Shown: positions 2,600 through 42,362 of the stretch, piece by piece
How positions within the stretch are numbered: the stretch's first letter is position 1
Layout of the letters: every line of letters begins with the position of its first letter
From: a virus
Taxonomy: Duplodnaviria > Heunggongvirae > Uroviricota > Caudoviricetes
Direction: 5' to 3' (one strand)
DNA length: 42,554 bases
Virus record (IMG/VR): IMGVR_UViG_2802429237_000001
Span: 1 to 42,554 of that record
The notes under the pieces: model-generated
The model's input: only the letters and a program-made list of their open reading frames with translations
Database searches by the model: none
Told to the model about the DNA's origin: nothing
Position numbers and translations under genes: made by a program

Positions 2600-3703
2600 T
2601 CAGGAGCCGATATATTCTGGTTTCATATCTGTCAGTGTCGTTTTATACGCCTCATATAATTCACCCAGATGTGGCCGGGCAGCATTCAGCGTATTTTCCA
2701 GAGCAGTAAATTTTTGTTCTGCTTCTGGATCACCTGATGAAGGAAGGTCATTTATCATCTTCTCGATACTGGCAATAGCATTGAGACGGTGATGACGCCG
2801 AACCACTTTTCCTTTAAGCTCGGCAAAGAATTCGCCGATCTGGTTTTTCTGATCCTCTATCTCTTGGCGTAATGCAGTGGTTTCCTCAGTCGTGGCCGCG
2901 CTTTCGACACGCTGCCGGAATTCATCAATCCACGCTTCGTCAATACGCTGTTCGATGGCTTCTGTTCGCTGCTCGCTTACCTCGCTATAATTCTGTACCG
3001 GCACAGGATTGATGATTTTTTCCTGTGGCTCTTCCAGTTCGTCCGGGGTATACACGCCCAGGATGACGTCAGGACAATAAAGGCGAGCCCAGTATTTCAA
3101 CGCCAGATAGGCGAGCTGTTGTTTCGGGTTTGAGGTCCATAAAGGAGAATTACGCGTAATCACGCTGGAAAGAAACACCGGTTCTCCCCAGGTAATCTCA
3201 CTTTCACCGCGAAGAACTGCACCAACTCGAACTGAGAGACCATACTCATCTTCACTGGTCCAACATGGGATCGTTTCTTTTTTCTCATAGATTCCGCCTC
3301 CTTTGGCCGTTTTCTTAACGGTCTCCACTCGGGTGCGAGAGCATTTCTCCCAGTCTCCCTCGTACTTGTAATGGAAGCGGCCTACAATTGCACTTGAGCT
3401 AGAGATCACAGCGTTAACCAGTTGTGCTTCATAACCCAGAACTCCGTTTACCAGGTGTGTTTTCTGAGCCACAGCGTAGGGGTTCATGCCCCATTGCATG
3501 GCTTGCATGATGATTGCCATGCAGTCGGCAGGATTTCCGCGAAGGTGATCGGGAACTGTGACGGTGGCCTGTGCCATCAAGCCGGCTACTGCCTGAAGTT
3601 GCGTCAACGCCTGAACGTTAAAAATAGTGTTACTGGCAGAAATGGTATTTGGTGTCTGCTCTGTCGTGATGATATTGGTATTTTGCATGGTCAGGTTCTC
3701 CAT
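2600..3703 (-). CDS. recT: RecT-family single-strand annealing recombinase
   Basis: 367 aa; region GNPADCMAIIMQAMQWGMNPYAVAQKTHLVNGVLGYEAQL resembles RecT; start overlaps the recE stop by one base. Confidence 0.85.
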   Translation of the reverse strand: MENLTMQNTNIITTEQTPNTISASNTIFNVQALTQLQAVAGLMAQATVTVPDHLRGNPADCMAIIMQAMQWGMNPYAVAQKTHLVNGVLGYEAQLVNAVISSSSAIVGRFHYKYEGDWEKCSRTRVETVKKTAKGGGIYEKKETIPCWTSEDEYGLSVRVGAVLRGESEITWGEPVFLSSVITRNSPLWTSNPKQQLAYLALKYWARLYCPDVILGVYTPDELEEPQEKIINPVPVQNYSEVSEQRTEAIEQRIDEAWIDEFRQRVESAATTEETTALRQEIEDQKNQIGEFFAELKGKVVRRHHRLNAIASIEKMINDLPSSGDPEAEQKFTALENTLNAARPHLGELYEAYKTTLTDMKPEYIGS

Positions 3704-6700
3704 TAAGCCAGATGCAGTGCTTCAAGACGACGAAGATCAAAGTCGTTTAATTCGTCGGTGTAACTTTCGGTAATCGGTGCTGGCCAGTTGTTTGTCTCCA
3801 GGGCTTCGTTTATCTGGCGTAGCGTCCGGCGATATTCCTGTCGACCAAGTTCCAGGAGTTCCTGCGAGGCTTCCACGACTGCCACCCAGTGATAGCCAGC
3901 ATCTTTGTTGACGAAGATCCAGAAAAATTTGTCCAGGTTTGCCACATCGCAATACATTGCGGCGCTGAGGTGATAATCACGCTCAATAATTTCACGGTGC
4001 AGGCGATCTTTAAGTCGTTCCTGTCGCACATAACCGAGGCTGACTGACTTCACGTCAGCGCAAATGCTTTCGTATGGCAGCCGGATTTCGATATCAGGAC
4101 GGACCCTGATTTCCAGCCCGGTTTCTTCATCAAACCCGAAATAGCTGATTTCAGATTTGCGATCCGGGTGGTTGAGTAGCCTTGCTGCATCGGTATTGTT
4201 TTGCAGTGCCGCGTGAATATTTTTTGCCTGTTCATACATATCCGGACTGATAAACGTTTTCCCGGCATTTTCTTCTTGCTGGCGTTTTTGCCAGTCCTCC
4301 AGTGTCACCAGTTCCGGGCGAATTTTCCGTGCGATTTCGGTTAATTGCTCTTTTGTGCCACTGATGTTGTAAGGCAAAGATTTAGCACGTTCTTTTTTTG
4401 CCAGTTCTGGGTCTACAGTTTCAATTTGATCCAGAAGCTGCTCCCGTGCTCCACTGGTTTTCAACAGAGGAGGGAGGCTTGCGTTGTATTCTTTAATACA
4501 GGCTTTCATTGCTGATGCTGTGTGTTTTTCCCCCTCAGGAATACGCCGAAATTCCACCGGAAGCGAACCGTAAAGGATGCCTGTTTCTTCGGCCCCGGCA
4601 CTTACAGACAGTGGCTGTATAAGAGTGCTGTTGTAGCTTTCGATCCACTCTTTCATCTGCTCTGGTGTCATCAGTGCTGGCAGACTGGCATTGTGTTTTT
4701 TAATGATGGCGATCAGTTCGCTAGAAGTAGTAACCACATATTCAGGAACCGGTACCGGAATGGCATATTCATCAGCGAATTTATCCGTTTCCAGAACATA
4801 GCTGTGAATGATCCGCCCACGCAGCAGTGCATCACTTTCCTCACTCGGAATAGTTCCGGCAATGTGCCGTCCGTGGTAATACATCAGGCTGATACGAGCA
4901 TCCTTCAGCATTGTGCTGCTTATTCCATTGGCAGAGTGATAAACCTCGTTTGGGAGGTTTTCATAGCGGCCTGGTTCGAAATATGATGGCCACATGATTT
5001 CAGTTGCTACAGGAGCTGACGCTTCACCAGTTTCATCACTGCAATTGTGATGCGAATCGCTGCCAGCGTTCTCCTTGTGCAGAGGTTCAGTGCCTTCCAT
5101 TTCCTCCGGATCTTTTTCCAGAGATTCATCCAGATTTTCTTCATTAAAGGTTTCCTGATACGTTGCGTCGCCCATTACCGCACCACAGTCGGGGCAGCTA
5201 TCCCCACCAGTCTGACCGCAGGCATTGCAGACTTTTTTCGGTTCCTGTTGCACTACTGGCTCAGGTTGTTTCACATCCGGGCTAGTTTTTTCAGTTTCTG
5301 GCGTGTTTTGTTCCGTTTCTGGCTGGTTCTGGTTCACAGAATCGCGAGTCTGGATCCCCTTAACCCATTTCGGATCATTCGGGTCGCTAATCCCTTCAAC
5401 AAATTCTCCACGCGAGGCAGCCAGCAATTTGTCTGCATCGACAGGATTTTTGGGCGGAATGTTTTTCCGGGCTTCATGGAGTTCTGCCCGCAGTTTCTGA
5501 TATTTCGCATCAACAGGGTTTACCTGTGACTGAGCATCCAGCGGCTGCGTGTCCTGATGATGTTCAGTTGCGTCCGGTTCCATTGTTTCAGCCGTTGCCT
5601 GTTCATCTGCCATTGCGCAAGATGGTTGCGGTTTTTCTTCATCATTCGGTTTTTCTTCTTCTGTTACACGCTGCGGCATCGGAGCAGAGGAGCGACCGCA
5701 GGCAATATCCACGATTTCCGGATCAGGGTTGGCATGATCGGTTTCAGTCAGTACTTTGTTCAGATATTCAGTGACGTGTGCGGGGATAACCTCGATACCA
5801 ATTGGTGCTTCTTTCACGGCCGCAACCACGATGGCACGGGAATAATCCAGCCCACCAGGCATGGCGATGAATTTGTCGCGGAAAACAGAAAAGGGTGGTT
5901 TATTTTCAGCGATAATTTCCTCGACACGTTTAGCGTGTGCTGGATGAAGGTTATAAATGTCCACGTCCATTGAACGGGCCAGTACGCCAGTGGCTACGTC
6001 GCGCGCCAGCGACGTCAGATCGTGAACGAAACCTTCGCCGCGGTCGGTAAGAATGCCGCCACCGGCATTTGCGCCCGACGGGGTGCGATTGATTTCAGAT
6101 ACGCAATTTCCTTTTGCCCACTCTTTTATCAGTAAGCTCTGATCCAGGTAATCGGTTTTCATCCAGGTGGATATGAACTTGTTGTATTCAGCCGGACTGA
6201 TGCGGCGAGTTTCTGCGTGAGTGAATGCCTTTTCCACGGAGCGCGCCAGTCTTTCCAGATGGTGGTTTGTCAGTTTATCCAGCTCAGGATGTGAGCGCAC
6301 CGCTGTAAGCATGCTCTGGAGGTTATGCTCCTCCATATCCATCTCCAGGCGGATCACGTCCTGGCGTTGTTCCGGTGTGGCGTGATGTTTGTATTTCCCA
6401 TTGAACTCCTGACCAAAGAAGTAGAGGTGCAGGAAACGATGAGCAAGACTGAGAGTGGCGACGGATACTTCGCAATCCTGGCAATCCCCGTGAGCGTCTG
6501 CCCGTGTGTTTTCTTCCTGGCCTCCCGCCGGTTCTTCGGTTTCCGGTGCATCCTCCTGATGGTGAACGTCGTCTGGCGCTGCTCCCGGTTTTAGTTCCCA
6601 GGTCATGGAGTCTTTGCTGAGTTGATAGCGTTCACTCCAGGTAAAATCGATCTCACCTTCAGGGGGAAGGTCATTAACGACAGGAAAATTCGTGGCAACA

Positions 6701-6858
6701 GGTTTAAAATAGCTGCTCAGTTTTTTACCTGACTTAACGAGCAGGTAGTCCAGAGTGGTGCTGGTCGATTCAAAATCGTCGTTTGCCCACAGGACGACGT
6801 CAGGTTCACCGGATGATTTTTTCGCTTTCCGTAACAGGAAGAGTGGTTTTGTGCTCAT
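3703..6858 (-). CDS. recE: Exodeoxyribonuclease VIII (RecE)-like protein, extended form (1051 aa)
   Basis: Directly upstream of recT; C-terminal region with PD-(D/E)xK-like RecE nuclease segment ([21 protein letters not shown]...ICADVKSV); central acidic low-complexity linker and [16 protein letters not shown] zinc-ribbon-like motif. Confidence 0.75.
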
Positions 6859-18465: not shown

Positions 18466-18825
18466 ATGTGCGAGGTGAGAGATGATGAAATGCCTCATAA
18501 CCCAAATACCTGGCCGGACTGGCTGGAGTTGTTTCAGAGCTGGTGGCGTGGAGACACTCCGCTGGGCGCAGTGATTATGTCGATCGTTATGGCTGGTTTG
18601 CGCATCGCCTATTTTGGCGGTGGTGGGGGCTGGAAACGAAAAACGCTTGAGATTTTGCTCTGTGGTGCCCTGACGCTGACCTTTGCATCCGCGCTTGAGT
18701 ATGTCGGATGGCCTAAATCACTTTCTGTTGCCATTGGTGGAGGGGTGGGGCTGATTGGTGTTGATGCTATTCGTGGTGCGGCAATGAGGGTCATCGGTAA
18801 CAAGTTCGGTGCCCATAAGGAGTAA
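18466..18825 (+). CDS. S: Holin, lambda S-like class I
   Basis: Hydrophobic helices GAVIMSIVMAGLRIAYFGG, ILLCGALTLTFASALEYVGW, SVAIGGGVGLIGV arranged like lambda S; probable start at ATG 18490 (SD gaggtgaga) with upstream in-frame ATG at 18466. Confidence 0.8.
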   Translation: MCEVRDDEMPHNPNTWPDWLELFQSWWRGDTPLGAVIMSIVMAGLRIAYFGGGGGWKRKTLEILLCGALTLTFASALEYVGWPKSLSVAIGGGVGLIGVDAIRGAAMRVIGNKFGAHKE

Positions 18826-18828
18826 TTA

Positions 18829-19305
18829 ATGCAGACACTTAATTCCCAGCGTAAAGCTTTCCTTGATATGGTGGCATGGTCAGAAGGAACAGATAACGGA
18901 CGGCAGAAAACCAGAAATCACGGTTATGATGTTATTGTCGGTGGCGAACTGTTCACTGATTACTCCGATCACCCCCGCAAACTTGTCACGCTAAATCCGA
19001 AACTCAAATCAACAGCCGCCGGACGTTACCAGCTTCTTTCCCGTTGGTGGGATGCCTATCGTAAGCAACTTGGCCTGAAAGACTTCTCGCCGAAAAGCCA
19101 GGACGCTGTGGCACTGCAGCAGATTAAAGAGCGTGGCGCTTTACCGATGATTGACCGTGGCGATATTCGTCAGGCAATCGACCGTTGCAGCAATATCTGG
19201 GCGTCGTTACCTGGTGCAGGTTACGGTCAGTATGAACATAGAATCGGTGACCTGATTTCCCGATTTAAAGAAGCTGGTGGGGTGGTAAATGAAGCTGAGA
19301 TATAA
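18829..19305 (+). CDS. R: Endolysin, lambda R-like lytic transglycosylase
   Basis: 158 aa; NSQRKAFLDMVAWSEGTDNGRQKTRNHGYDVIVGGELFTDYSDHPRKLVTLNPKLKSTAAGRYQLLSRWWDAYRKQLGLKDFSPKSQDAVALQQIKERGALPMIDRGDIRQAIDRCSNIWASLPGAGYGQ is nearly identical to lambda R as I recall it. Confidence 0.9.
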   Translation: MQTLNSQRKAFLDMVAWSEGTDNGRQKTRNHGYDVIVGGELFTDYSDHPRKLVTLNPKLKSTAAGRYQLLSRWWDAYRKQLGLKDFSPKSQDAVALQQIKERGALPMIDRGDIRQAIDRCSNIWASLPGAGYGQYEHRIGDLISRFKEAGGVVNEAEI

Positions 19306-19681
19306 GCTGGTTATTGTTGCCTTCTTTGTTACCGTCATCGGTTCTTTTATCTGGTCTGCCGGGCATTACTACAGCAAATATCAACACGAAAAGGAGCGTG
19401 CTGATGAGGCTGTACGAAATGCTGAATCTGCAACAGCCATTACCAGTAACGTCCTGCAATCACTGCAAATCATCAATACAGTTATAGAGGCTAACCAGCA
19501 TGCAAAACAGCAGATCGCACTGGAGTCACAGAGAACCCAGGAAGATATCAAAGTGGCTGTTGCGGATGATGATTGTGCTGTTCGTATCGTTCCTTCTGGC
19601 GCAGTTAAGCGGTTGCACGAATACGCGAACGGTATACGTGTCGGTGCCGGTCGTTCCGTTACCAGCCAGTCTGACGGATGA
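19289..19681 (+). CDS. Rz: Rz-like i-spanin
   Basis: 130 aa; N-terminal TM helix LVIVAFFVTVIGSFIWSAGHYY then coiled-coil-like periplasmic domain; immediately follows the endolysin. Confidence 0.7.
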   Translation: MKLRYKLVIVAFFVTVIGSFIWSAGHYYSKYQHEKERADEAVRNAESATAITSNVLQSLQIINTVIEANQHAKQQIALESQRTQEDIKVAVADDDCAVRIVPSGAVKRLHEYANGIRVGAGRSVTSQSDG

Positions 19682-29695: not shown

Positions 29696-30841
29696 ATGGC
29701 ACAGGGCTTGCCTGTATCAAACGTTGTTAATGTTGATGTGATCATGTCGCCGCGTGCAGCATCAGGGCGAAATTTTGGTGCATTACTCATTCTCGGCCCG
29801 TCCACAATCATTCCGGTAAGTGAGCGCATTCGCCGTTATTCTGCCGCGGAAGATATTGGAAAAGATTTTGGTGTGGAATCACCAGAATATAAGGCTGCGC
29901 AGGTGTTTTTCTCACAATCACCGAAACCTCAGGAGGTTTTTGTTGGTCGTTGGGTGAAAACGAAGGGAGACAGCGAACAGGCCACGCCTGAGACGCTGGA
30001 GCAGGCTGTGAATGCCATGCTCGATTATACTTCATGGTATGGGCTGGGGATTGCAGACGAGGAAGATATTCCGGATGCAGACTGGCTGAAAGTGGCTGCG
30101 GCGATCGAATCCTCTTCTGTAAGCCGTATTCTGGCGATTACGACAAGCGATGAGAAATGCCTGCAAACTGCATCCAGCGATGATTTGGCATCAAAACTGA
30201 AAACCGCCGGATATTCACGCAGTTTTATTCAGTATTCATCGGGTAATAAATACGCTGCGTTATCTGCATTTGGCCGGGCATTCACGGTTAATTTCAATGG
30301 CAGTAATACCGCGATTACGCTCAAGTTTAAGCAGGAGCCGGGTGTCGGGTATGAAACACGGACAGTCAGCCAGGCATCGGCACTTGATGCAAAAAACTGC
30401 AATGTGTTCGTGTACTACCAGAATGATACAGCTATCCTCCAGCAGGGAGTGATGGCCAACGGTGATTTCTTTGATGAACGCCACGGCCTGGACTGGTTAC
30501 AGAATTATGTGCAGACCAACCTCTATAACCTGCTTTATACCAGCACCACGAAAGTTCCCCAGACTGAAGCCGGTATTACCCGACTGTTATCAAGTGTTGA
30601 AAAATCACTGGATCAGGCCGTTCAGAATGGACTGATTGCTCCGGGCGTATGGAACGGTGGCGACCTTGGTCAGTTGTCATCAGGTGACACGCTGCCTAAA
30701 GGTTATTACGTATACGCCCAGCCGCTGGATGAACAGGCACAATCAGAACGTGAAGCCCGTAAGGCTCCGGTGATTCAGGCTGCAATAAAACTTGCAGGCG
30801 CGGTTCATTACGCTGACGTACAGATTAACGTTGTTCGCTAA
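29696..30841 (+). CDS. Putative contractile tail sheath protein
   Basis: 381 aa; gene order sheath, tube, chaperone, tape measure; SD ggaga. Confidence 0.65.
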
Positions 30842-30851
30842 GGGGAAGTGA

Positions 30852-31292
30852 ATGTCTACCTATTCTTTTATGGATGTCACTGCGACGCTGACCGGGCCGA
30901 CCGGTTCGATTGACCTTGGGTACGGTTCTGCAAGTTCTGAAGAGGGGATTGTGGTTGCGATGGGCGGTCCTAAAAACACCATGACCATCGGTGCTGATGG
31001 CGAAGTGATGCACAGTCTCCATGCAGATAAAAGCGGGACGATTACCGTTAACCTTCTGAAGACATCACCGACAAATAAAAAATTGTCGCTGGCGTATAAC
31101 GCCCAGAGCCAGTCTTCTGCCACATGGGGGAATAACGTTATCGTGATCCGCAACAAGGTCAGCGGCGACATCATCACGGCACGCAGTGTTGCGTTCCAGA
31201 AACAACCGGATAACGCCAACGCTAAAACCGGTAATACGATGCCGTGGGTGTTTGACTGCGGCAAGATTGACCAGGTTCTCGGGGAGTTTTAA
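30852..31292 (+). CDS. Putative tail tube protein
   Basis: 146 aa directly after the sheath gene with SD aggggaag. Confidence 0.6.
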   Translation: MSTYSFMDVTATLTGPTGSIDLGYGSASSEEGIVVAMGGPKNTMTIGADGEVMHSLHADKSGTITVNLLKTSPTNKKLSLAYNAQSQSSATWGNNVIVIRNKVSGDIITARSVAFQKQPDNANAKTGNTMPWVFDCGKIDQVLGEF

Positions 31293-31295
31293 TAC

Positions 31296-31748
31296 ATGGA
31301 ATTCGAAATCAAAGGTGTGAAATATCGCGTGGCAAAACTCAGCGTTTTTGACCAGCTGAAAGTGACCCGCAAACTTCTGCCGGTGCTGGCAGGAATGATG
31401 TCAGATTTCGGGAGCATTCGCTCCCGTTTGCCTGCTGATGGCAAAATCGACACCGTGAAATTCGAGCAGTTAAAACCGGTGTTTGAATCCATGCTCCCGC
31501 GTATCGCTGAGGAACTGTCTTCCCTGACCGAAGATGACACCGATGCGATTATTCACCCCTGTCTTGCGGTGGTATCGCGGCGTCATATGGACGGATGGGT
31601 GCCGGTATTTACCCGGGGCGAACTGATGTTTGATGATATTGACTTGCTGGTCATGCTGCAGCTGGTGGCGCGGGTGGTCGCCGATTCGCTGGGAAATTTT
31701 TTGCCTACACCCCTTACCAGCACGACGCAGAGCCTGCAACAGGGCTGA
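31296..31748 (+). CDS. Tail assembly chaperone (G-like)
   Basis: 150 aa immediately upstream of the tape measure gene; contains slippery heptamer T_TTT_TTG near its 3' end. Confidence 0.65.
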   Translation: MEFEIKGVKYRVAKLSVFDQLKVTRKLLPVLAGMMSDFGSIRSRLPADGKIDTVKFEQLKPVFESMLPRIAEELSSLTEDDTDAIIHPCLAVVSRRHMDGWVPVFTRGELMFDDIDLLVMLQLVARVVADSLGNFLPTPLTSTTQSLQQG

Positions 31749-31945
31749 CGTTTAACAGCCTGCCGGACGGGCTGTCCTACCTTCTCAATCCGGTTGACGC
31801 CGGGTTAATTCCTTATACAGCACTTAAAGATGGCTCTGTCGATTTGTACGACATTGCTCTCTTGAATGACCATCTGGTGGTAAAAGCGGATAACCAGCGG
31901 CGCATTGAGAAATGGAGAGAGGATAATGAACGCCGAGACTATTAA
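31697..31945 (+). other. -1 frame extension of the tail chaperone (G-T-like fusion), inferred
   Basis: Slippery site T TTT TTG at 31697..31703; the -1 frame stays open for 82 codons to TAA at 31943..31945, overlapping the tape measure start. Confidence 0.45.
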
Positions 31946-33914
31946 AGATTTCCTCGTCTCGCTTGGCTTCAGTGTGGATGATGCAGGAGCGAAAAAATTC
32001 GGTTCTGTTCTCGCCGGTACAACTGCAAATGTCATCAAAATGGGGCTGGCCGTCGAAGGAGCTGCGCTGTCCGTGGTGGCCTTCACGGCTAAGATCGCCT
32101 CTGGTCTGGATAATCTTTACTGGGCGTCACAGCGCACCGGCGCGACAGTCCAGGGAATTCAGTCTATTGGCTATGCGGTTTCGCAGGTTGGCGGCAGCGT
32201 GGACGCTGCGCGATCTTCTCTGGAAAACCTCTCCCGGTTTATTCGTAACAATCCCGGGGCAGAGGGATTTCTGAATCGCCTGGGCGTTCAGACACGGGAT
32301 GCCAGCGGCAACATGCGTGACATGGCCGCTATCTTTACGGGCGTTGGACAGAAACTCAGCAGCATGCCGTATTACCGGGCTAACCAGTATGCGCAGATGC
32401 TGGGCATTGACGAAAATACCCTTATGGCGATGCGCCGGGGTGTGGGTGGCTTCTCCGGGCAGTACAGCGCAATGGCGAAAGCTATCGGCTTCAATGCTGA
32501 CGAGGCGGCCAGAAGCTCCAACAAATTTATGACCTCCCTGCGTGAGTTTGGCGCGATGGCAGGCATGGCCCGTGACAAAATCGGCTCTAATCTTGCGGGG
32601 GGGCTTGCGGGTTCGCTGGACACCCTGCGCCGCCATATCCTGGACAACTTCCCTCGTATCGAGCAGACCCTGACGAAAGCCATAAAAGGCATTCTGGCGC
32701 TCGGGGATATTATCGGGCGGCTGTTCTTCAGACTGATTGAAGGAACATCAGGCCTCATCACCTGGTGGCAATCGCTGGATAAGCAAACGCGGGAGTTGAT
32801 CTCGCTGTTTGGCGCACTGACGATTGCGCTGCGCATTCTGAACAGTACGTTCTGGATGTCGCCGGTTGGCCTCATTACCGCGCTGGCGGCGGGGATTGCC
32901 CTCCTGTGGGAGGACTATCAGACCTGGAAGGAAGGCGGCGACAGCCTGATTGACTGGGGCAAGTGGAAACCGGAGGTCGATGCCGCGTTGAAGATGGTTC
33001 GTGACCTTAAAACGACCGTTAACGACCTGGCGAAAGCGCTGGCGAAACTGCTCAATATTGACCCCAAATCATGGTCCCTGAAGTGGGATTTCAGCAACTT
33101 CATCGACCAGATGGGCGAATTCAGCAAAATGCTGAACATGATCGCCGACCTGCTCAACGCTATCAAAGATGGACGCTGGGCTGATGCCGTCAGCATCGGC
33201 AAACAGATACTTAATCAGGGCAGCGAAAATCAGTCAGCGATGCCGATGGTTACAGACAGCGCTAACAGTACTGCCGACTGGATTAAAGAGCACTGGGGAT
33301 TCGATCCCCGCAGTGTGGGCCGGACGGTACGCGGCTGGTTTGGTGATGATGAGCCGGAACAACATGCACAGGCTACAAAACGAGGAGAGCGGAATAACAA
33401 TCCGGGAAACCTTAATTTTGCTGGTCAGGCGGGGGCTTCTCTTGAACATCCGGGCGGGCGATTTGCCAGATTTGAAACTGCCTTTGATGGATTACGGGCT
33501 CTTGCTCGTCAGTTAATGTTGTACGCCGGGCGAGGAATAAACAGTGTGGAAAAAATTATCTCTACCTGGGCACCTGCCTCTGATAATAACAACACAACTG
33601 CGTATATCAGGGCTGTATCGCAACGACTGGGAGTGGATCCCCGGGCTGCCCTGAATATGAGCGATCCGCAAACCATGTCAGCATTGATGAGCAGCATTAT
33701 CCAGCATGAGAATGGAAGAAATATCTATTCTCGAGAGCTGATTAATAAGGCTGCCGTGGCGGGAATTAGTGGCAAAGTGACAGAGGTTAACCAGCAAAAT
33801 ACCTACCACATTTACGGTGGCGGAGATCCGCACGCTGTCGGTAATGAGGTTGCACGTCGGCAACAGTCTGCAAATGCTCAGGTCATGCGAAGTAATCAGG
33901 TGAGGGTGGGTTAG
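31926..33914 (+). CDS. Tail tape measure protein
   Basis: 662 aa from ATG at 31926 with SD ggagagagga (track start 31905 is TTG); long helical hydrophobic stretches. Confidence 0.8.
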   Translation: MNAETIKDFLVSLGFSVDDAGAKKFGSVLAGTTANVIKMGLAVEGAALSVVAFTAKIASGLDNLYWASQRTGATVQGIQSIGYAVSQVGGSVDAARSSLENLSRFIRNNPGAEGFLNRLGVQTRDASGNMRDMAAIFTGVGQKLSSMPYYRANQYAQMLGIDENTLMAMRRGVGGFSGQYSAMAKAIGFNADEAARSSNKFMTSLREFGAMAGMARDKIGSNLAGGLAGSLDTLRRHILDNFPRIEQTLTKAIKGILALGDIIGRLFFRLIEGTSGLITWWQSLDKQTRELISLFGALTIALRILNSTFWMSPVGLITALAAGIALLWEDYQTWKEGGDSLIDWGKWKPEVDAALKMVRDLKTTVNDLAKALAKLLNIDPKSWSLKWDFSNFIDQMGEFSKMLNMIADLLNAIKDGRWADAVSIGKQILNQGSENQSAMPMVTDSANSTADWIKEHWGFDPRSVGRTVRGWFGDDEPEQHAQATKRGERNNNPGNLNFAGQAGASLEHPGGRFARFETAFDGLRALARQLMLYAGRGINSVEKIISTWAPASDNNNTTAYIRAVSQRLGVDPRAALNMSDPQTMSALMSSIIQHENGRNIYSRELINKAAVAGISGKVTEVNQQNTYHIYGGGDPHAVGNEVARRQQSANAQVMRSNQVRVG

Positions 33915-34805: not shown

Positions 34806-35882
34806 ATGTCACAGAACTGGATGAGACATTTCGAGCTGCAGCTTGTGGACGGGAACGGTCAGGGAATTGAGCTAAGTGATTTCAAAGTCACCTTTACGAT
34901 CGACTGGTTCAACATCAGCAGCGCGTCCCGGGTAGGGACTATCAAAATTTATAACCTCTCGGCAGATACTGTGAACCGAATTACCGGGCAGGAGTTTTCG
35001 AAAGTGCGTCTGATTGCGGGTTACGACGGTATCGCGCCGGAGGTGTCGGCAAGCGACGTCGGGACAGTGCGGGAAGTTGACGCGGCGGACGTGGGCCAGA
35101 GTGATGGTCGCAACTACGGACTGATTTTCAGCGGTGAAATTCGCTACTCGGTCACAGGAAAAGACAGTCCGGTTGATTCCTACGTCCTGATTCAGGCAGC
35201 AGATACTGATCTGGCTTTTGCCACCAGTATAACCTCACAGACGCTGGCTGCCGGTTACACGGTCGCTGATGTGAACCGTGCGCTGATGAAAGACTTCGAA
35301 GCCAAAGGCGCGACCGAAGGCCTGACGCCTGAAATGCCTGCTAATGTATTCCCCCGGGGGCGGGTGCTCTTTGGCATGACGCGGCATCTAATGGATAACG
35401 TAGCCGGGCAATGTGGCGCAACATGGCAATTCGTGGACGGTCAGCGCCAGATGGTGGCGAATAACGAATATGTTCACGAAGCGATTGTGCTCAACAGCGC
35501 TACCGGGCTTATCGGTATGCCGCAGCAGACCATCGGCAACGGCGTAAACGTCCGCGCGCTTATTAATCCGAACATCCGGGTTAACGGGCTCATTCAGCTG
35601 GATCAGGCTTCCGTCTATCGTACTGCGTTGTCGAACAACGATATTGCGATGGCTGGTGGTCAGATCACCGACCAAAACACGGACGGAAATATCACGCTCA
35701 GCGGCACCATATCGCAGCCTGCCAGCATCGCAACGGATGGCGTTTATATTGTGCGCGGGATTATGTACACTGGTGACACAAGGGGCCAGGCGTGGTACAT
35801 GGACATGATGTGCGAAGCGCGTGGCGCGGCGGATTTACTTTCGTCCTCAGCGCAGCAAAGGATTTATTCATGGAGCGTATGA
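34806..35882 (+). CDS. Putative baseplate hub protein (Mu gp44/P-like)
   Basis: 358 aa; position after tape measure and two small tail genes. Confidence 0.55.
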   Translation: MSQNWMRHFELQLVDGNGQGIELSDFKVTFTIDWFNISSASRVGTIKIYNLSADTVNRITGQEFSKVRLIAGYDGIAPEVSASDVGTVREVDAADVGQSDGRNYGLIFSGEIRYSVTGKDSPVDSYVLIQAADTDLAFATSITSQTLAAGYTVADVNRALMKDFEAKGATEGLTPEMPANVFPRGRVLFGMTRHLMDNVAGQCGATWQFVDGQRQMVANNEYVHEAIVLNSATGLIGMPQQTIGNGVNVRALINPNIRVNGLIQLDQASVYRTALSNNDIAMAGGQITDQNTDGNITLSGTISQPASIATDGVYIVRGIMYTGDTRGQAWYMDMMCEARGAADLLSSSAQQRIYSWSV

Positions 35883-36217
35883 AGTTAGTTCTGACAATTT
35901 CGTTACTGTTTTCCTGCTCATCGGCTTTCGCTGATTTGCAATGCGGGGGATACCGACTTCATGCATCTGATAACGGGTGGACGAAAATCAACGGCGAACA
36001 GGTAACATCTCAGAAAATTAAGTTTCTTGGTCAGAAAGATGACTGGGACAACGTTAAAACCGACATGGGCCTGATGCCTTCCCGCGATGGCAACAATTAC
36101 GGCTTTGAGTTTGTGAAGCGTAACGGAAAAGCCTTCCTGAACGTCCAACTGCTGCAAAACAGCATGGATGCTCCGAAAATCATTGGATCTTACCCTTGTA
36201 AGAAAATTGCTGATTGA
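35870..36217 (+). CDS. Secreted hypothetical protein with signal peptide (cargo within tail operon)
   Basis: ATG at 35870 or 35879; signal peptide MKLVLTISLLFSCSSAFA then DLQ; cysteines in the mature part; lower GC than neighbours; own terminator downstream. Confidence 0.6.
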   Translation: MERMKLVLTISLLFSCSSAFADLQCGGYRLHASDNGWTKINGEQVTSQKIKFLGQKDDWDNVKTDMGLMPSRDGNNYGFEFVKRNGKAFLNVQLLQNSMDAPKIIGSYPCKKIAD

Positions 36218-36643: not shown

Positions 36644-37396
36644 ATGGCAGTATCCGACCAGACCCGCAGCGGCGACCTTGCTGAAACATTCAAATCCGAG
36701 CGGGAAACCATTAAAAACCAGATCCGTGTCGCCTTGCCTGGCATTATTCAGTCATTCGATCCTGATGCGGTGACGGCGGTTGTGCAGCCTGCTATCCGTT
36801 CGGTTGAAAAGGATAATGACGGCAGCCGCATTACCAAAAATTACCCATTGCTGGTGGATGTGCCAGTGGTATTCCCGCGCGGAGGAGGCTGTACGTTGAC
36901 TTTTCCGGTAAAAGCCGGGGATGAGTGTCTTGTCGTTTTTGCCGATCGTTGTATTGATTTCTGGTGGCAGAACGGCGGGATACAGGAGCCTGTTGATGAC
37001 AGAATGCATGATTTATCGGATTCGTTTTGTATTGTCGGTCCCCAGTCGCAGGCAAGGAAGATTAGCGGTATTAATACCAGTGCCACACAGTTGCGTAGTG
37101 ACGACGGCAGCACCTATTTTGAGCTTAATCCTGATACCAGGAAAATTAAAATTGTCGCACCCGGGGGGCTTGATGTGGTCGCCCCTCTGGCTGATTTTTC
37201 TGAGAAAGTAACCATTCATGGCCTGTTAACCTGGATGGGGGGCATGGTGGGGTCTGTTGTTTCTGGCGTGGCTTCAAAAATCACTGGTGCTGTTGAGTTC
37301 TTGGGGAGCGTTAAGGCTAACGGCAAGCCAATCGATGATACGCACACTCATGGCGGTGTTCAGCGCGGTGGAAGCAGTACCGACGGGGTAAACTGA
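36644..37396 (+). CDS. Baseplate central spike protein (gpV/Mu gp45-like)
   Basis: 250 aa; SD ggag; Gly-rich C-terminal region; position before W-like and J-like genes. Confidence 0.65.
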   Translation: MAVSDQTRSGDLAETFKSERETIKNQIRVALPGIIQSFDPDAVTAVVQPAIRSVEKDNDGSRITKNYPLLVDVPVVFPRGGGCTLTFPVKAGDECLVVFADRCIDFWWQNGGIQEPVDDRMHDLSDSFCIVGPQSQARKISGINTSATQLRSDDGSTYFELNPDTRKIKIVAPGGLDVVAPLADFSEKVTIHGLLTWMGGMVGSVVSGVASKITGAVEFLGSVKANGKPIDDTHTHGGVQRGGSSTDGVN

Positions 37397-41559: not shown

Positions 41560-41705
41560 TCTATAAAGCCAACGGATGAATACATCACTGTTTTCCCTGT
41601 GCTGACTTCACAATCAACCATAACACACACTCTACTGCTTCAGTCCAGCCTTTTTTAACATTTATGTTAAAATAATGTGACCTTCTGCGCGGGAGTAAAA
41701 AATTG

Positions 41706-42362
41706 ATGAAAGAGGCAGGCCGCACCTATCAGAAAATTGATGGCAGCCATTGGCGACATATCTGGTTGGTAGGGGATATTCATGGCTGCCTTGGGCTACT
41801 GCGTATCAAATTATGGCACTGCCGTTTTGACCCGTGGCAAGACTTATTGATCTCGGTAGGTGATGTTATTGATCGTGGTCCGGAGAGTTTGCGTTGTCTT
41901 CAACTACTGGAGCAACGCTGGGTTAGAGCGGTAAGAGGTAATCATGAGCAGATGGCGATAGATGCACTGGCCGCGCAGCAGATGTCTTTATGGTATATGA
42001 ACGGTGGCGACTGGTTTGCTGCGCTGACAGATAAACAACAGAAGCAAGCAGAAAGGGCACTCGAAAAATGCCAGCATTTGCCTTTTATTCTTGAATTAAA
42101 CAGTTGCACGGGCAAACATGTTATTGCCCATGCTGATTATCCAGACGACATTTATCAATGGCAAAAGGAAGTCGATTTGCACCAGGTATTGTGGAGTCGT
42201 TCGCGATTACGTGAAGGCCAAAAAGGGCAGGGAATTAGCGGTGCTGACCATTTCTGGTTTGGCCATACGCCATTACCTCATCGTGTAGATATTGGAAACT
42301 TGCATTATATAGACACCGGCGCCGTCTTCGGAGGGACACTCACGGTGGAACAACTCCAGTAA
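41706..42362 (+). CDS. pphA: Serine/threonine protein phosphatase 1 (PrpA/PphA), host gene
   Basis: 218 aa from ATG at 41706 (track start is TTG); metallophosphatase motifs GDIHGC, GDVIDRG, GNHE; close to my recollection of E. coli PphA but not identical. Confidence 0.9.
   Translation: MKEAGRTYQKIDGSHWRHIWLVGDIHGCLGLLRIKLWHCRFDPWQDLLISVGDVIDRGPESLRCLQLLEQRWVRAVRGNHEQMAIDALAAQQMSLWYMNGGDWFAALTDKQQKQAERALEKCQHLPFILELNSCTGKHVIAHADYPDDIYQWQKEVDLHQVLWSRSRLREGQKGQGISGADHFWFGHTPLPHRVDIGNLHYIDTGAVFGGTLTVEQLQ

Follow-up and report, generated by a model that had tools for sequence, protein, structure and literature searches.

The tape measure gene and its surroundings

The window, by which we mean the whole stretch of 42,554 nt that was analyzed (positions 1 to 42,554 of the IMG/VR virus record IMGVR_UViG_2802429237_000001, Caudoviricetes), represents a temperate prophage with a contractile tail and includes a tail tape measure gene on the plus strand at positions 31926–33914 (662 aa, stop codon included). 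Over its full length the encoded protein matches phrog_2276 ("tail length tape measure protein") with an E value of 3e-283, and it has weak matches to the Pfam model PhageMin_Tail (22.7 bits, cut-off 33.2) and to TIGR01760 (18.3, cut-off 28.8). The ATG at 31926 is the likely start of the gene: the Shine-Dalgarno sequence GGAGAGAGG lies directly 5' of it, and the resulting length of 662 aa agrees with the annotation of phage SEN34 and with the residue numbering used in the original prediction, which had been made from the sequence alone. An in-frame TTG at 31905, 5' of this ATG, is an unlikely start.

The gene is placed between a gene for a tail chaperone (31296–31748), which has a T TTT TTG slippery site and a −1 frame that is open up to 31945, and downstream genes for a Dit-like protein, a Pam3-gp18 plug, and a hub. 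The hub, which is of the E217/Pa193 type, and the Pam3-type plug are tail components that the prophage has in common with phage Pa193. No lysozyme domain was found in the hub or in the spike (36644–37393), and a second tail lysozyme as in T4 gp5 was rejected on these grounds; within the tail, a muralytic domain is predicted only at aa 487–622 of the tape measure protein.

The body of the tape measure protein (aa 1–486; 31926–33383, plus strand, as are all parts of this gene) ends in the linker EPEQHAQATKR (33351–33383), which is common to relatives that carry an SLT domain and forms the upstream junction of an exchangeable cassette. Within the body, aa 291–328 (LISLFGALTIALRILNSTFWMSPVGLITALAAGIALLW; 32796–32909) form a hydrophobic stretch with Kyte-Doolittle values above 1.6 at aa 308–328 (19-residue window), and comparison with tape measure proteins of other phages (PMC11456595) makes this stretch a candidate membrane-inserting segment. 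The cassette itself is a predicted peptidoglycan glycosidase domain of the Enc34 type (PHA02564) at aa 487–622 (33384–33791). It is followed by a conserved C-terminal tail (aa 623–662, QQNTYHIYGGGDPHAVGNEVARRQQSANAQVMRSNQVRVG; 33792–33911) that forms the downstream junction and whose motif is kept behind both types of cassette in many genera. Pa193 gp41 binds to the tail tip and hub through its residues 840–858 (PMC11456595), and by comparison the C-terminal tail of the prophage protein probably anchors it to the hub or spike.

A conserved-looking domain had originally been predicted at 33360–33730, in the C-terminal ~120 residues of the protein. The peptide quoted for this interval is the exact translation of the plus strand and is in frame with the open reading frame 31905/31926–33914; its limits, however, start 24 nt early and end 61 nt short of the domain, losing the last helix, and the domain is not located at the extreme C-terminus because the 40-aa tail follows it.

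The lysis genes of the prophage are found elsewhere in the window. An endolysin of the lambda R type (18829–19305, plus strand; PDB 1am7, E value 1.7e-96; phrog_90) is flanked by a holin gene (18466–18825; phrog_126, PF05106) and a gene for an Rz-like spanin (19289–19681; phrog_214). We considered that the tape measure domain could be a second copy of the prophage's own endolysin and rejected this, given that the endolysin is lambda R-like and the two have no similarity. The domain sits in a structural tail protein, apart from the lysis endolysin, as is the case for virion-associated hydrolases.

Family, fold, and active site of the domain

Neither Pfam nor NCBIfam models match the C-terminal 195–204 aa of the tape measure protein, and Pfam SLT (PF01464), a family marked by the catalytic E-S motif and by GLxQ and AYNxG motifs, does not match the protein at an E value of 1 or less. 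[quoted passage not shown] The segment is thus conserved far beyond chance, as its appearance had suggested. We assigned chain L of 9VVP ("Gp29") to the gp16-like proteins of Kayfunavirus by tblastn analysis of the aligned segment. The family comprises 9,939 cluster representatives at an E value of 1e-3 or less (3,837 at 1e-10 or less), and the domain occurs in 753 phage records and in 255 of 5,426 complete E. coli genomes. Orthologs in E. coli are named inconsistently by the NCBI pipeline and RefSeq, either as "lytic transglycosylase" or as "hypothetical protein".

A template-free AlphaFold model of the domain has a pLDDT of 93.6 and a pTM of 0.87, and the predicted fold is all-helical, resembling a permuted α-lobe of lysozyme. 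The segment had been described as globular-looking, unlike the helical tape measure body; in the model it is indeed a compact globule and not an extended coiled coil, but it is itself entirely helical. [quoted passage not shown]

To analyze conservation we used 149 representatives with a pairwise identity of at most 50%, and residues were mapped onto Enc34 by alignment to 7q47, in which the chain index exceeds the numbering of the paper by one for all three residues concerned. The signature motif RNNNPGN (aa 489–495; 33390–33410) is located at the N-terminal edge of the domain, is also present in 7q47 and 9vvp, and is nearly invariant (R489 in 147, N492 and P493 each in 148, and N495 in 145 of the 149 representatives), as are an aromatic-AP motif and an NxTxAY motif. 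W548 (33567–33569) corresponds to Trp79 of Enc34, an aromatic residue that positions the substrate, and is replaced only by Tyr or Phe in the entire set (W/Y/F in 149/149); Y560 (33603–33605) corresponds to Tyr95 and is Tyr in 147/149; and E595 in the HENG motif (33708–33710) corresponds to Glu131, the proposed catalytic residue, and is Glu in 149/149. Comparison of the domain with copies from Citrobacter and Trabulsiella gave dN/dS values of 0.03–0.04, indicating purifying selection.

When the structures are superimposed, Glu131 of Enc34 coincides with the catalytic Glu in enzymes of the GH73 and GH23 families (PMC8943055). In the same work Glu131 was not mutated and a substrate complex was not obtained (PMC8943055), so that the catalytic mechanism of the family rests on structural superposition. 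For the alternative that the segment is a receptor-binding or other host-interaction domain, which the original prediction had also raised, we found no support: fold searches turned up no resemblance to binding domains, and the invariance of the active-site residues is a further argument against it.

Exchange with SLT domains and proposed role at entry

The tape measure protein of SEN34 contains a Pfam SLT domain (E value 1.9e-23) in exactly the slot that the Enc34-type domain occupies in the prophage. Nucleotide identity between the two genes is about 83–97% in the body up to about position 33356 and resumes at about 33781, with 75–80% in the C-terminal tail. This exchange within a near-identical protein marks aa 487–622 as the precise boundaries of a portable domain. 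Of the tape measure relatives from different species, 65 could be classified: the Enc34-type domain is present in 29 and SLT in 36, and in no case do the two occur together. The type of cassette changed at least 14 times on the tree of the body. One relative from Alkanindiges (L068) fits neither type and has no Pfam hit. The SLT cassettes have an invariant catalytic E-S motif of their own; the possibility that the two types are alignable homologs was rejected by profile-profile comparison (hhalign probability 0.2%). The same alternation is seen in T7-like phages, in which T7 gp16 has SLT at its N-terminus (E value 8.5e-31) and K1F gp16 has an Enc34-type domain there (38% identity to the prophage domain, E value 5e-28). 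The repeated and mutually exclusive exchange with SLT, mirrored in gp16, argues that the Enc34-type fold, which is poorly characterized, serves the same purpose as a lytic transglycosylase.

The isolated domain of Enc34 lyses outer-membrane-permeabilized E. coli, P. aeruginosa, and Hafnia, with an activity on P. aeruginosa equal to that of hen lysozyme (PMC8943055); within our comparison, muralytic activity has been measured only for this protein, Enc34 ORF39deltaC (PMC8943055). We consider it probable, with good confidence, that aa 487–622 constitute a virion-borne enzyme of the Enc34-endolysin (PHA02564) type that cleaves the glycan strands of peptidoglycan and is used at entry. The function would most likely be the ordinary one of cutting a hole in murein at DNA injection, performed here by a less familiar, swappable domain. 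The original proposal of a cell-wall-active domain delivered during injection is therefore supported by the homology to Enc34, the retention of the catalytic Glu and both aromatic residues, the presence of SLT in the same slot, and the existence of a separate endolysin. From this evidence we infer that the prophage's own copy is enzymatically active, that it is present in the virion and delivered to the periplasm, and that the events of entry follow the order given below.

In the proposed mechanism, the tape measure protein would fill the lumen of the tail tube, with its last 40 residues docked at the hub or spike. Upon contraction of the sheath the spike would breach the outer membrane, the tape measure protein would exit the tube with its C-terminus leading, and the 136-residue domain would fold or refold in the periplasm. 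There Glu595 would act as the general acid while Trp548 and Tyr560 hold the sugar in position, and a local hole would be cut in the murein. The way to the inner membrane would then be open to the tube and to the hydrophobic part of the tape measure protein (aa 291–328), and these would conduct the DNA. The tube lumen is unlikely to accommodate three or six folded 15-kDa domains side by side, and the domain would have to be unfolded or housed in a cavity of the hub prior to ejection, a state that we assume by analogy with the discussion of Pa193. It is also possible that the C-terminus is proteolytically removed during tail assembly, as it is in gpH of lambda.

The bond that is cleaved can be assigned with less confidence. 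By analogy with the argument made for Enc34, the domain is probably a β-N-acetylglucosaminidase; that it instead cuts murein as a lytic transglycosylase or muramidase is possible though doubtful, and would alter the chemistry and leave the biological role the same. NCBI names the copies P0001, P0005, P0006, and P0008 as well as some of the hits in E. coli genomes "lytic transglycosylase", but this name may have been inherited from relatives in which SLT is part of an otherwise shared protein, and there is no Pfam SLT or NCBIfam match. The single catalytic Glu is shared with GH23 lytic transglycosylases, Enc34 superimposes also on the GH23 enzymes gp144 and MltC, and in two virion proteins the domain and SLT can take each other's place; against this, the profiles of the two cassettes do not align, and the structure most similar to that of Enc34 is a GH73 glucosaminidase, with the authors of the Enc34 study arguing for glucosaminidase activity (PMC8943055). 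Glucosaminidase and endopeptidase products have been reported for the related M4Lys.

The slot could further be regarded as a place for hot-swappable cassettes, with the chemistry of the host cell wall selecting which of them it contains, an idea that we consider improbable. SLT lytic transglycosylases need a free C6-OH on MurNAc and are blocked by O-acetylation of peptidoglycan, whereas this modification would leave the Enc34-type domain unaffected, provided that it is a glucosaminidase. In favor of the idea, the ratio of Enc34-type to SLT cassettes is 15:3 among relatives from Morganellaceae hosts and 14:33 among the others (Fisher p 1.7e-4, ignoring shared ancestry), and we treat this skew between host families as a lead only. 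Prophages of E. coli, which is not known to O-acetylate its murein, include 262 with the Enc34-type domain versus 7 with SLT, which counts against the idea. Peptidoglycan of Photorhabdus is 65.6% O-acetylated (PMC1199599), which speaks for the idea; the eight Photorhabdus loci probably represent one lineage, which counts against it.

A dead or nonhydrolytic murein-binding module, which would hold the tape measure protein to the sacculus after ejection or have a structural role in the tail tip, is very unlikely. It is true that tape-measure-embedded copies are known from sequence while activity data come from free Enc34, and that the small, all-helical fold is devoid of the β-lobe of classical lysozymes. 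This reading is, however, difficult to reconcile with the Glu that is kept by every representative, the near invariance of the RNNNPGN, aromatic-AP, and NxTxAY motifs, the low dN/dS, the catalytic E-S motif of the SLT domains that otherwise hold the slot, and the lysozyme-like activity of the free Enc34 domain. Finally, although the family provides the true endolysin of chi-like and 9g-like phages, an action at the end of infection, for example by surplus or unassembled tape measure protein assisting lysis, is extremely improbable given the complete lambda-type holin, endolysin, and spanin cassette of the prophage, the fusion of the domain inside a structural tail protein that has no signal sequence, and the same logic of fusion in gp16-type ejection proteins.

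Although it is very common, the domain escapes the models of Pfam and NCBIfam, and labeling it correctly would benefit the annotation of many prophage tails. As a minimal domain that presumably tolerates unfolding and refolding, it may also suit enzybiotic or engineering use.

Comparison with known systems

That tape measure and ejection proteins can carry muralytic domains is well known, and in this respect the biology is unsurprising. T5 Pb2 is a tail protein with a muralytic domain, and motif 3 of the Tmp of mycobacteriophage TM4 is a muralytic domain in a tape measure protein (cited in PMC11456595). These two, Pseudomonas phage Pa193 gp41, and the tape measure proteins of enterococcal phages, which have lytic transglycosylase domains, follow the same principle of an embedded hydrolase that is ejected before the DNA. 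The catalytic folds in Pa193, TM4, T5, and the enterococcal phages are different ones, namely SLT/GH23, Rpf-like, and M23 peptidase, and none of the papers that we found describes a tape measure protein with an Enc34-type domain.

Among the closest known proteins are ORF39 of the Hafnia phage Enc34 (PDB 7Q47; CDD PHA02564, "V virion protein") and M4Lys of the Salmonella phage BSPM4. The Enc34 protein is a free-standing lysis enzyme that is encoded in a lysis cassette and has a C-terminal membrane domain of two helices, whereas the prophage domain lies inside a tape measure protein and is shorter, being without the Enc34 insertions around FDKRKAADGS and KKNGVVE. The paper on Enc34 mentions neither tails nor tape measure proteins (PMC8943055).

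With respect to the carrier protein, the tape measure protein of SEN34, a Salmonella phage of the genus Brunovirus, is 79% identical at the amino acid level overall and the genes are about 90% identical at the nucleotide level outside the cassette. SEN34 and the other SLT-bearing relatives, which are found in Enterobacter, Citrobacter, Pantoea, Yersinia, and other genera, have the same gene order, flanking linker, and C-terminal tail as the prophage and differ in that the slot holds SLT (GH23) instead of the Enc34-type domain.

The gp16-type internal virion protein D of Kayfunavirus (K1F gp16; 9VVP chain L) has the same domain in a component of the ejectosome. This protein is expelled from the virion to build a conduit for DNA and carries the Enc34-type domain where T7 has SLT. 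It is a podovirus core protein of ~1,300 aa that is stored in the capsid and has the domain at its extreme N-terminus, whereas in the prophage the domain is near the C-terminus of a protein of the tail lumen.

The tape measure protein and its C-terminal domain

The open reading frame at 31905–33914 encodes a 662-aa protein whose start is likely ATG 31926, which is preceded by GGAGAGAGG and agrees with the start annotated for its homologue in Salmonella phage SEN34. Because phrog_2276 ("tail length tape measure protein") from PHROGs matches the frame over its full length (E 3e-283), the call as a tape measure protein is sound; the frame scores under the cut-offs of the Pfam and TIGRFAM tape measure models. 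The original prediction placed a cell-wall-active or host-interaction domain, delivered during injection, at 33360–33730 (+). Translation of these positions, which are in frame with the tape measure gene, gives exactly the peptide quoted. The domain is confirmed, and the cell-wall-active reading, with its presumed delivery, is supported by homology to the Enc34 endolysin, predicted fold, active-site conservation, and alternation with another enzyme domain, as described below.

No Pfam or NCBIfam model matches the last 200 residues of the protein. The C-terminal segment does match phrog_873 ("endolysin", E 6e-50) and phrog_7182 ("tail injection transglycosylase", E 6e-28) in PHROGs, and 9vvp_L ("Gp29", E 1e-19) and 7q47_A (E 8e-13) in a PDB sequence search. 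[quoted passage not shown] The domain is all-helical, resembles a permuted alpha-lobe of lysozyme, and lyses E. coli, P. aeruginosa, and Hafnia cells whose outer membrane has been permeabilised (PMC8943055). Its proposed catalytic Glu131, with Trp79 and Tyr95, is superimposable on GH73 and GH23 active sites, and its beta-N-acetylglucosaminidase specificity was argued, not measured, by the authors (PMC8943055). A template-free AlphaFold2 model of aa 481–624, built from a 27-sequence alignment (pLDDT 93.6, pTM 0.87), has 7q47 as its sole PDB match in Foldseek (E 5e-8, TM 0.78; next match E > 1). W548, Y560, and E595 align in HMMER with 7q47 chain residues 80, 96, and 132, which by a uniform offset of +1 are Trp79, Tyr95, and Glu131 of Enc34.

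At E ≤ 1e-3 an exhaustive HMMER search returned 9,939 cluster representatives, of which 3,837 remain at E ≤ 1e-10. Among the best 149 representatives, mutually ≤50% identical, Glu595, Pro550, Gly522, and an aromatic residue at position 548 are each kept in 149, Tyr560 is kept in 147, and the RNNNPGN motif is nearly invariant. By the Nei–Gojobori method, dN/dS across the domain is 0.037 against Citrobacter braakii and 0.032 against the Trabulsiella copy, at a dS of about 1.6 that is close to saturation. Judged from these sequence comparisons, dN/dS and residue conservation together are the mark of a maintained enzyme rather than of a decaying or purely structural remnant.

Exchange of Enc34-type and SLT cassettes

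Over its whole length, the tape measure protein of SEN34 is 79% identical to that of the prophage. Nucleotide identity between 31926 and about 33356 is mostly 80–97%, apart from a single 60-nt window with 68%; it falls to 28–47% across 33357–33780, and is back at 75–80% from about 33781 to the stop. The divergent SEN34 stretch is a Pfam SLT (lytic transglycosylase, GH23) domain (aa 510–604, E 1.9e-23). The reciprocal mosaic is found in E. coli phage vB_EcoM-689R2, in which the Enc34-type cassette is 93–100% identical in nucleotides over 33422–33780 and the central body is divergent. The GC content of the cassette is 0.49 versus 0.557 upstream.

Scanning a single genome for each species yielded 70 loci, mostly from Enterobacterales, and 62 of these together with the prophage, SEN34, and 689R2 gave 65 classifiable tape measure proteins. 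Each carries, at a constant relative position, either an Enc34-type (29) or an SLT (36) cassette and never both, usually followed by a shared C-terminal motif, (Q/E)(N/T)xI(Y/H)G...DP...(R/K)Q..(A/V)N; the E-S motif is invariant in SLT cassettes. In a neighbour-joining tree built from aa 1–350 of the body, the cassette switches at least 14 times (label shuffles: mean 21.5, minimum 15), and the bodies nearest to that of the prophage (96% aa; Enterobacter soli and E. asburiae) have SLT. An exchangeable cassette fills this slot. The two families have no sequence similarity detectable by hhalign (probability 0.2%). NCBI names orthologues "lytic transglycosylase" or "hypothetical protein"; as a statement of SLT family membership the former label is unsupported, there being neither a Pfam SLT match nor an hhalign probability above that value.

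Among 5,426 complete E. coli genomes, the 5' end of the tape measure gene occurs in 309 (326 places), the Enc34-type cassette in 255 (262 places), and the SEN34-type SLT cassette in 6 (7 places). There is a low probability that cassette choice tracks host wall chemistry. Morganellaceae hosts have 15 Enc34-type versus 3 SLT cassettes and other hosts 14 versus 33 (Fisher p 1.7e-4, uncorrected for ancestry), and Photorhabdus murein is 65.6% O-acetylated, a modification that blocks lytic transglycosylases (PMC1199599); contrary to this idea, E. coli prophages in complete genomes are overwhelmingly Enc34-type.

Several relatives vary around the slot. By phmmer or Pfam, neither cassette is present in the Alkanindiges illinoisensis locus (L068, 4078–4974), where the slot, with ISFETAGS...GLIQFM, may be filled by a third, divergent GH23-like cassette. 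In Xenorhabdus and Morganella loci (L057, L059–L062, L064–L066), an extra 100–230 residues with repeated NAMANIxNM-like motifs replace the short conserved tail behind either cassette type. Some SLT-bearing relatives have insertions between body and cassette (about 70 aa in L006, L007, and L036, 220 in L027, and 90 in L048 and L049), and therefore the region upstream of the slot is also length-variable. Near-identical enterobacterial tape measure proteins in records labelled Bacteroidota (L036, Chryseobacterium sp. 18061, 85% aa) and Firmicute (L072, Bacillus sp. AFS073361, a 395-nt contig, 84% aa) are probably contaminating contigs, not true host range.

Prophage context and lysis genes

The tape measure gene lies in a complete temperate prophage. 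Its gene order runs from an integrase (734–1807, −) through a Rac-like recombination module (2603–6858, −), made up of RecT (PF03837) and a protein of 1,051 aa that resembles exonuclease VIII/RecE and ends in a PDDEXK domain, an HTH repressor, a lambda-type holin, endolysin, and spanin cassette (18466–19681), and portal and major capsid genes to a DUF3383 sheath (29696–30841), a KPP10-Orf10-type tube (30852–31292), and a tail chaperone (31296–31748, +) directly before the tape measure frame. A Dit-like protein, Pam3-gp18-type plug, E217-gp41-type hub, and gpV-like spike follow in that order, then wedge proteins, a fibre, and a fibre-assembly protein. Inside the chaperone gene (31296–31948, +), a slippery T TTT TTG (31697–31703) looks like a G/GT-type programmed −1 frameshift site. 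Beyond it the −1 frame stays open until the stop at 31946–31948, which would add about 82 aa and overlap the start of the tape measure gene at 31926; in E. coli genomes NCBI annotates a "DUF6889 family protein" CDS over this stretch. Between the hub and spike genes, a 115-aa frame (35870–36217, +) with a signal-peptide or lipobox-like N-terminus (MKLVLTISLLFSCSSAFA) and no Pfam match may be a moron, e.g., a superinfection-exclusion lipoprotein. A calcineurin-like metallophosphatase gene (41703–42362, +; PF00149, E 4.5e-13) just past the tail-fibre assembly gene, at the right prophage end, may be cargo.

The endolysin (18829–19305, +), with a lambda S-type holin on one side and an Rz-like spanin on the other, is essentially lambda R (PDB 1am7, E 1.7e-96). 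It is without a Pfam or NCBIfam match at the thresholds used and has no relationship to the tape measure domain. No muralytic domain was seen in the spike and hub, which leaves the tape measure domain as the sole candidate in the tail for cutting the wall.

Related ejected proteins and comparison with known systems

By tblastn, which gave 747 matching phage records, the 9vvp segment belongs to a gp16-type protein of Kayfunavirus phages named "internal virion protein D / DNA ejectosome component". Residues 4–141 of K1F gp16 are 38% identical to the prophage domain (E 5e-28) and have no Pfam match, and T7 gp16 has a Pfam SLT domain in the equivalent place (aa 15–127, E 8.5e-31). Together with the tape measure slot, Enc34-type and SLT domains thus interchange in two unrelated protein classes, both of which are expelled from the virion when infection starts. 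In the phage collection the Enc34-type domain also occurs as a free endolysin in chi-like and 9g-like phages, and within proteins of the D3112/MP22 and SPN1S types that are labelled "structural" or "head". Long proteins with the domain close to their C-terminus (median 55 residues behind it) make up 93 of the 149 closest representatives, and 52 of these 93 are detectably homologous to the tape measure body of the prophage.

Pseudomonas phage Pa193 has tail components in common with the prophage. Its tape measure protein contacts the tail tip and hub through residues 840–858 and has a putative transglycosylase domain upstream of them. In the authors' proposal, this protein lies extended in the lumen, leaves it with the C-terminus in front, and on folding in the periplasm becomes first a hydrolase and then a channel (PMC11456595). 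For the prophage domain, the present analysis shows homology, fold, conserved residues, selection, and alternation with SLT, and from these we infer virion presence, folding state, timing, and bond specificity. By analogy with Pa193, aa 623–662 would dock at the hub or spike, contraction and spike loss would free the C-terminal end, aa 487–622 would fold and then cleave glycan strands via Glu595, and the hydrophobic segment aa 291–328 would contribute to an inner-membrane conduit.

A literature search, in which PHA02564 was scarcely mentioned, found no paper placing an Enc34-type fold in a tape measure protein, and the words "tail" and "tape measure" do not occur in the Enc34 paper (PMC8943055). 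The repeated alternation of SLT and Enc34-type cassettes is a neat but modest addition. Muralytic domains in tape measure proteins are well documented, as in T5 Pb2, and the literature search gave, as a further case, enterococcal tape measure proteins that carry a lytic transglycosylase domain. Pa193 gp41 is likewise a tape measure protein with a muralytic domain, and TM4 Tmp is another, listed among the references of the same paper (PMC11456595).
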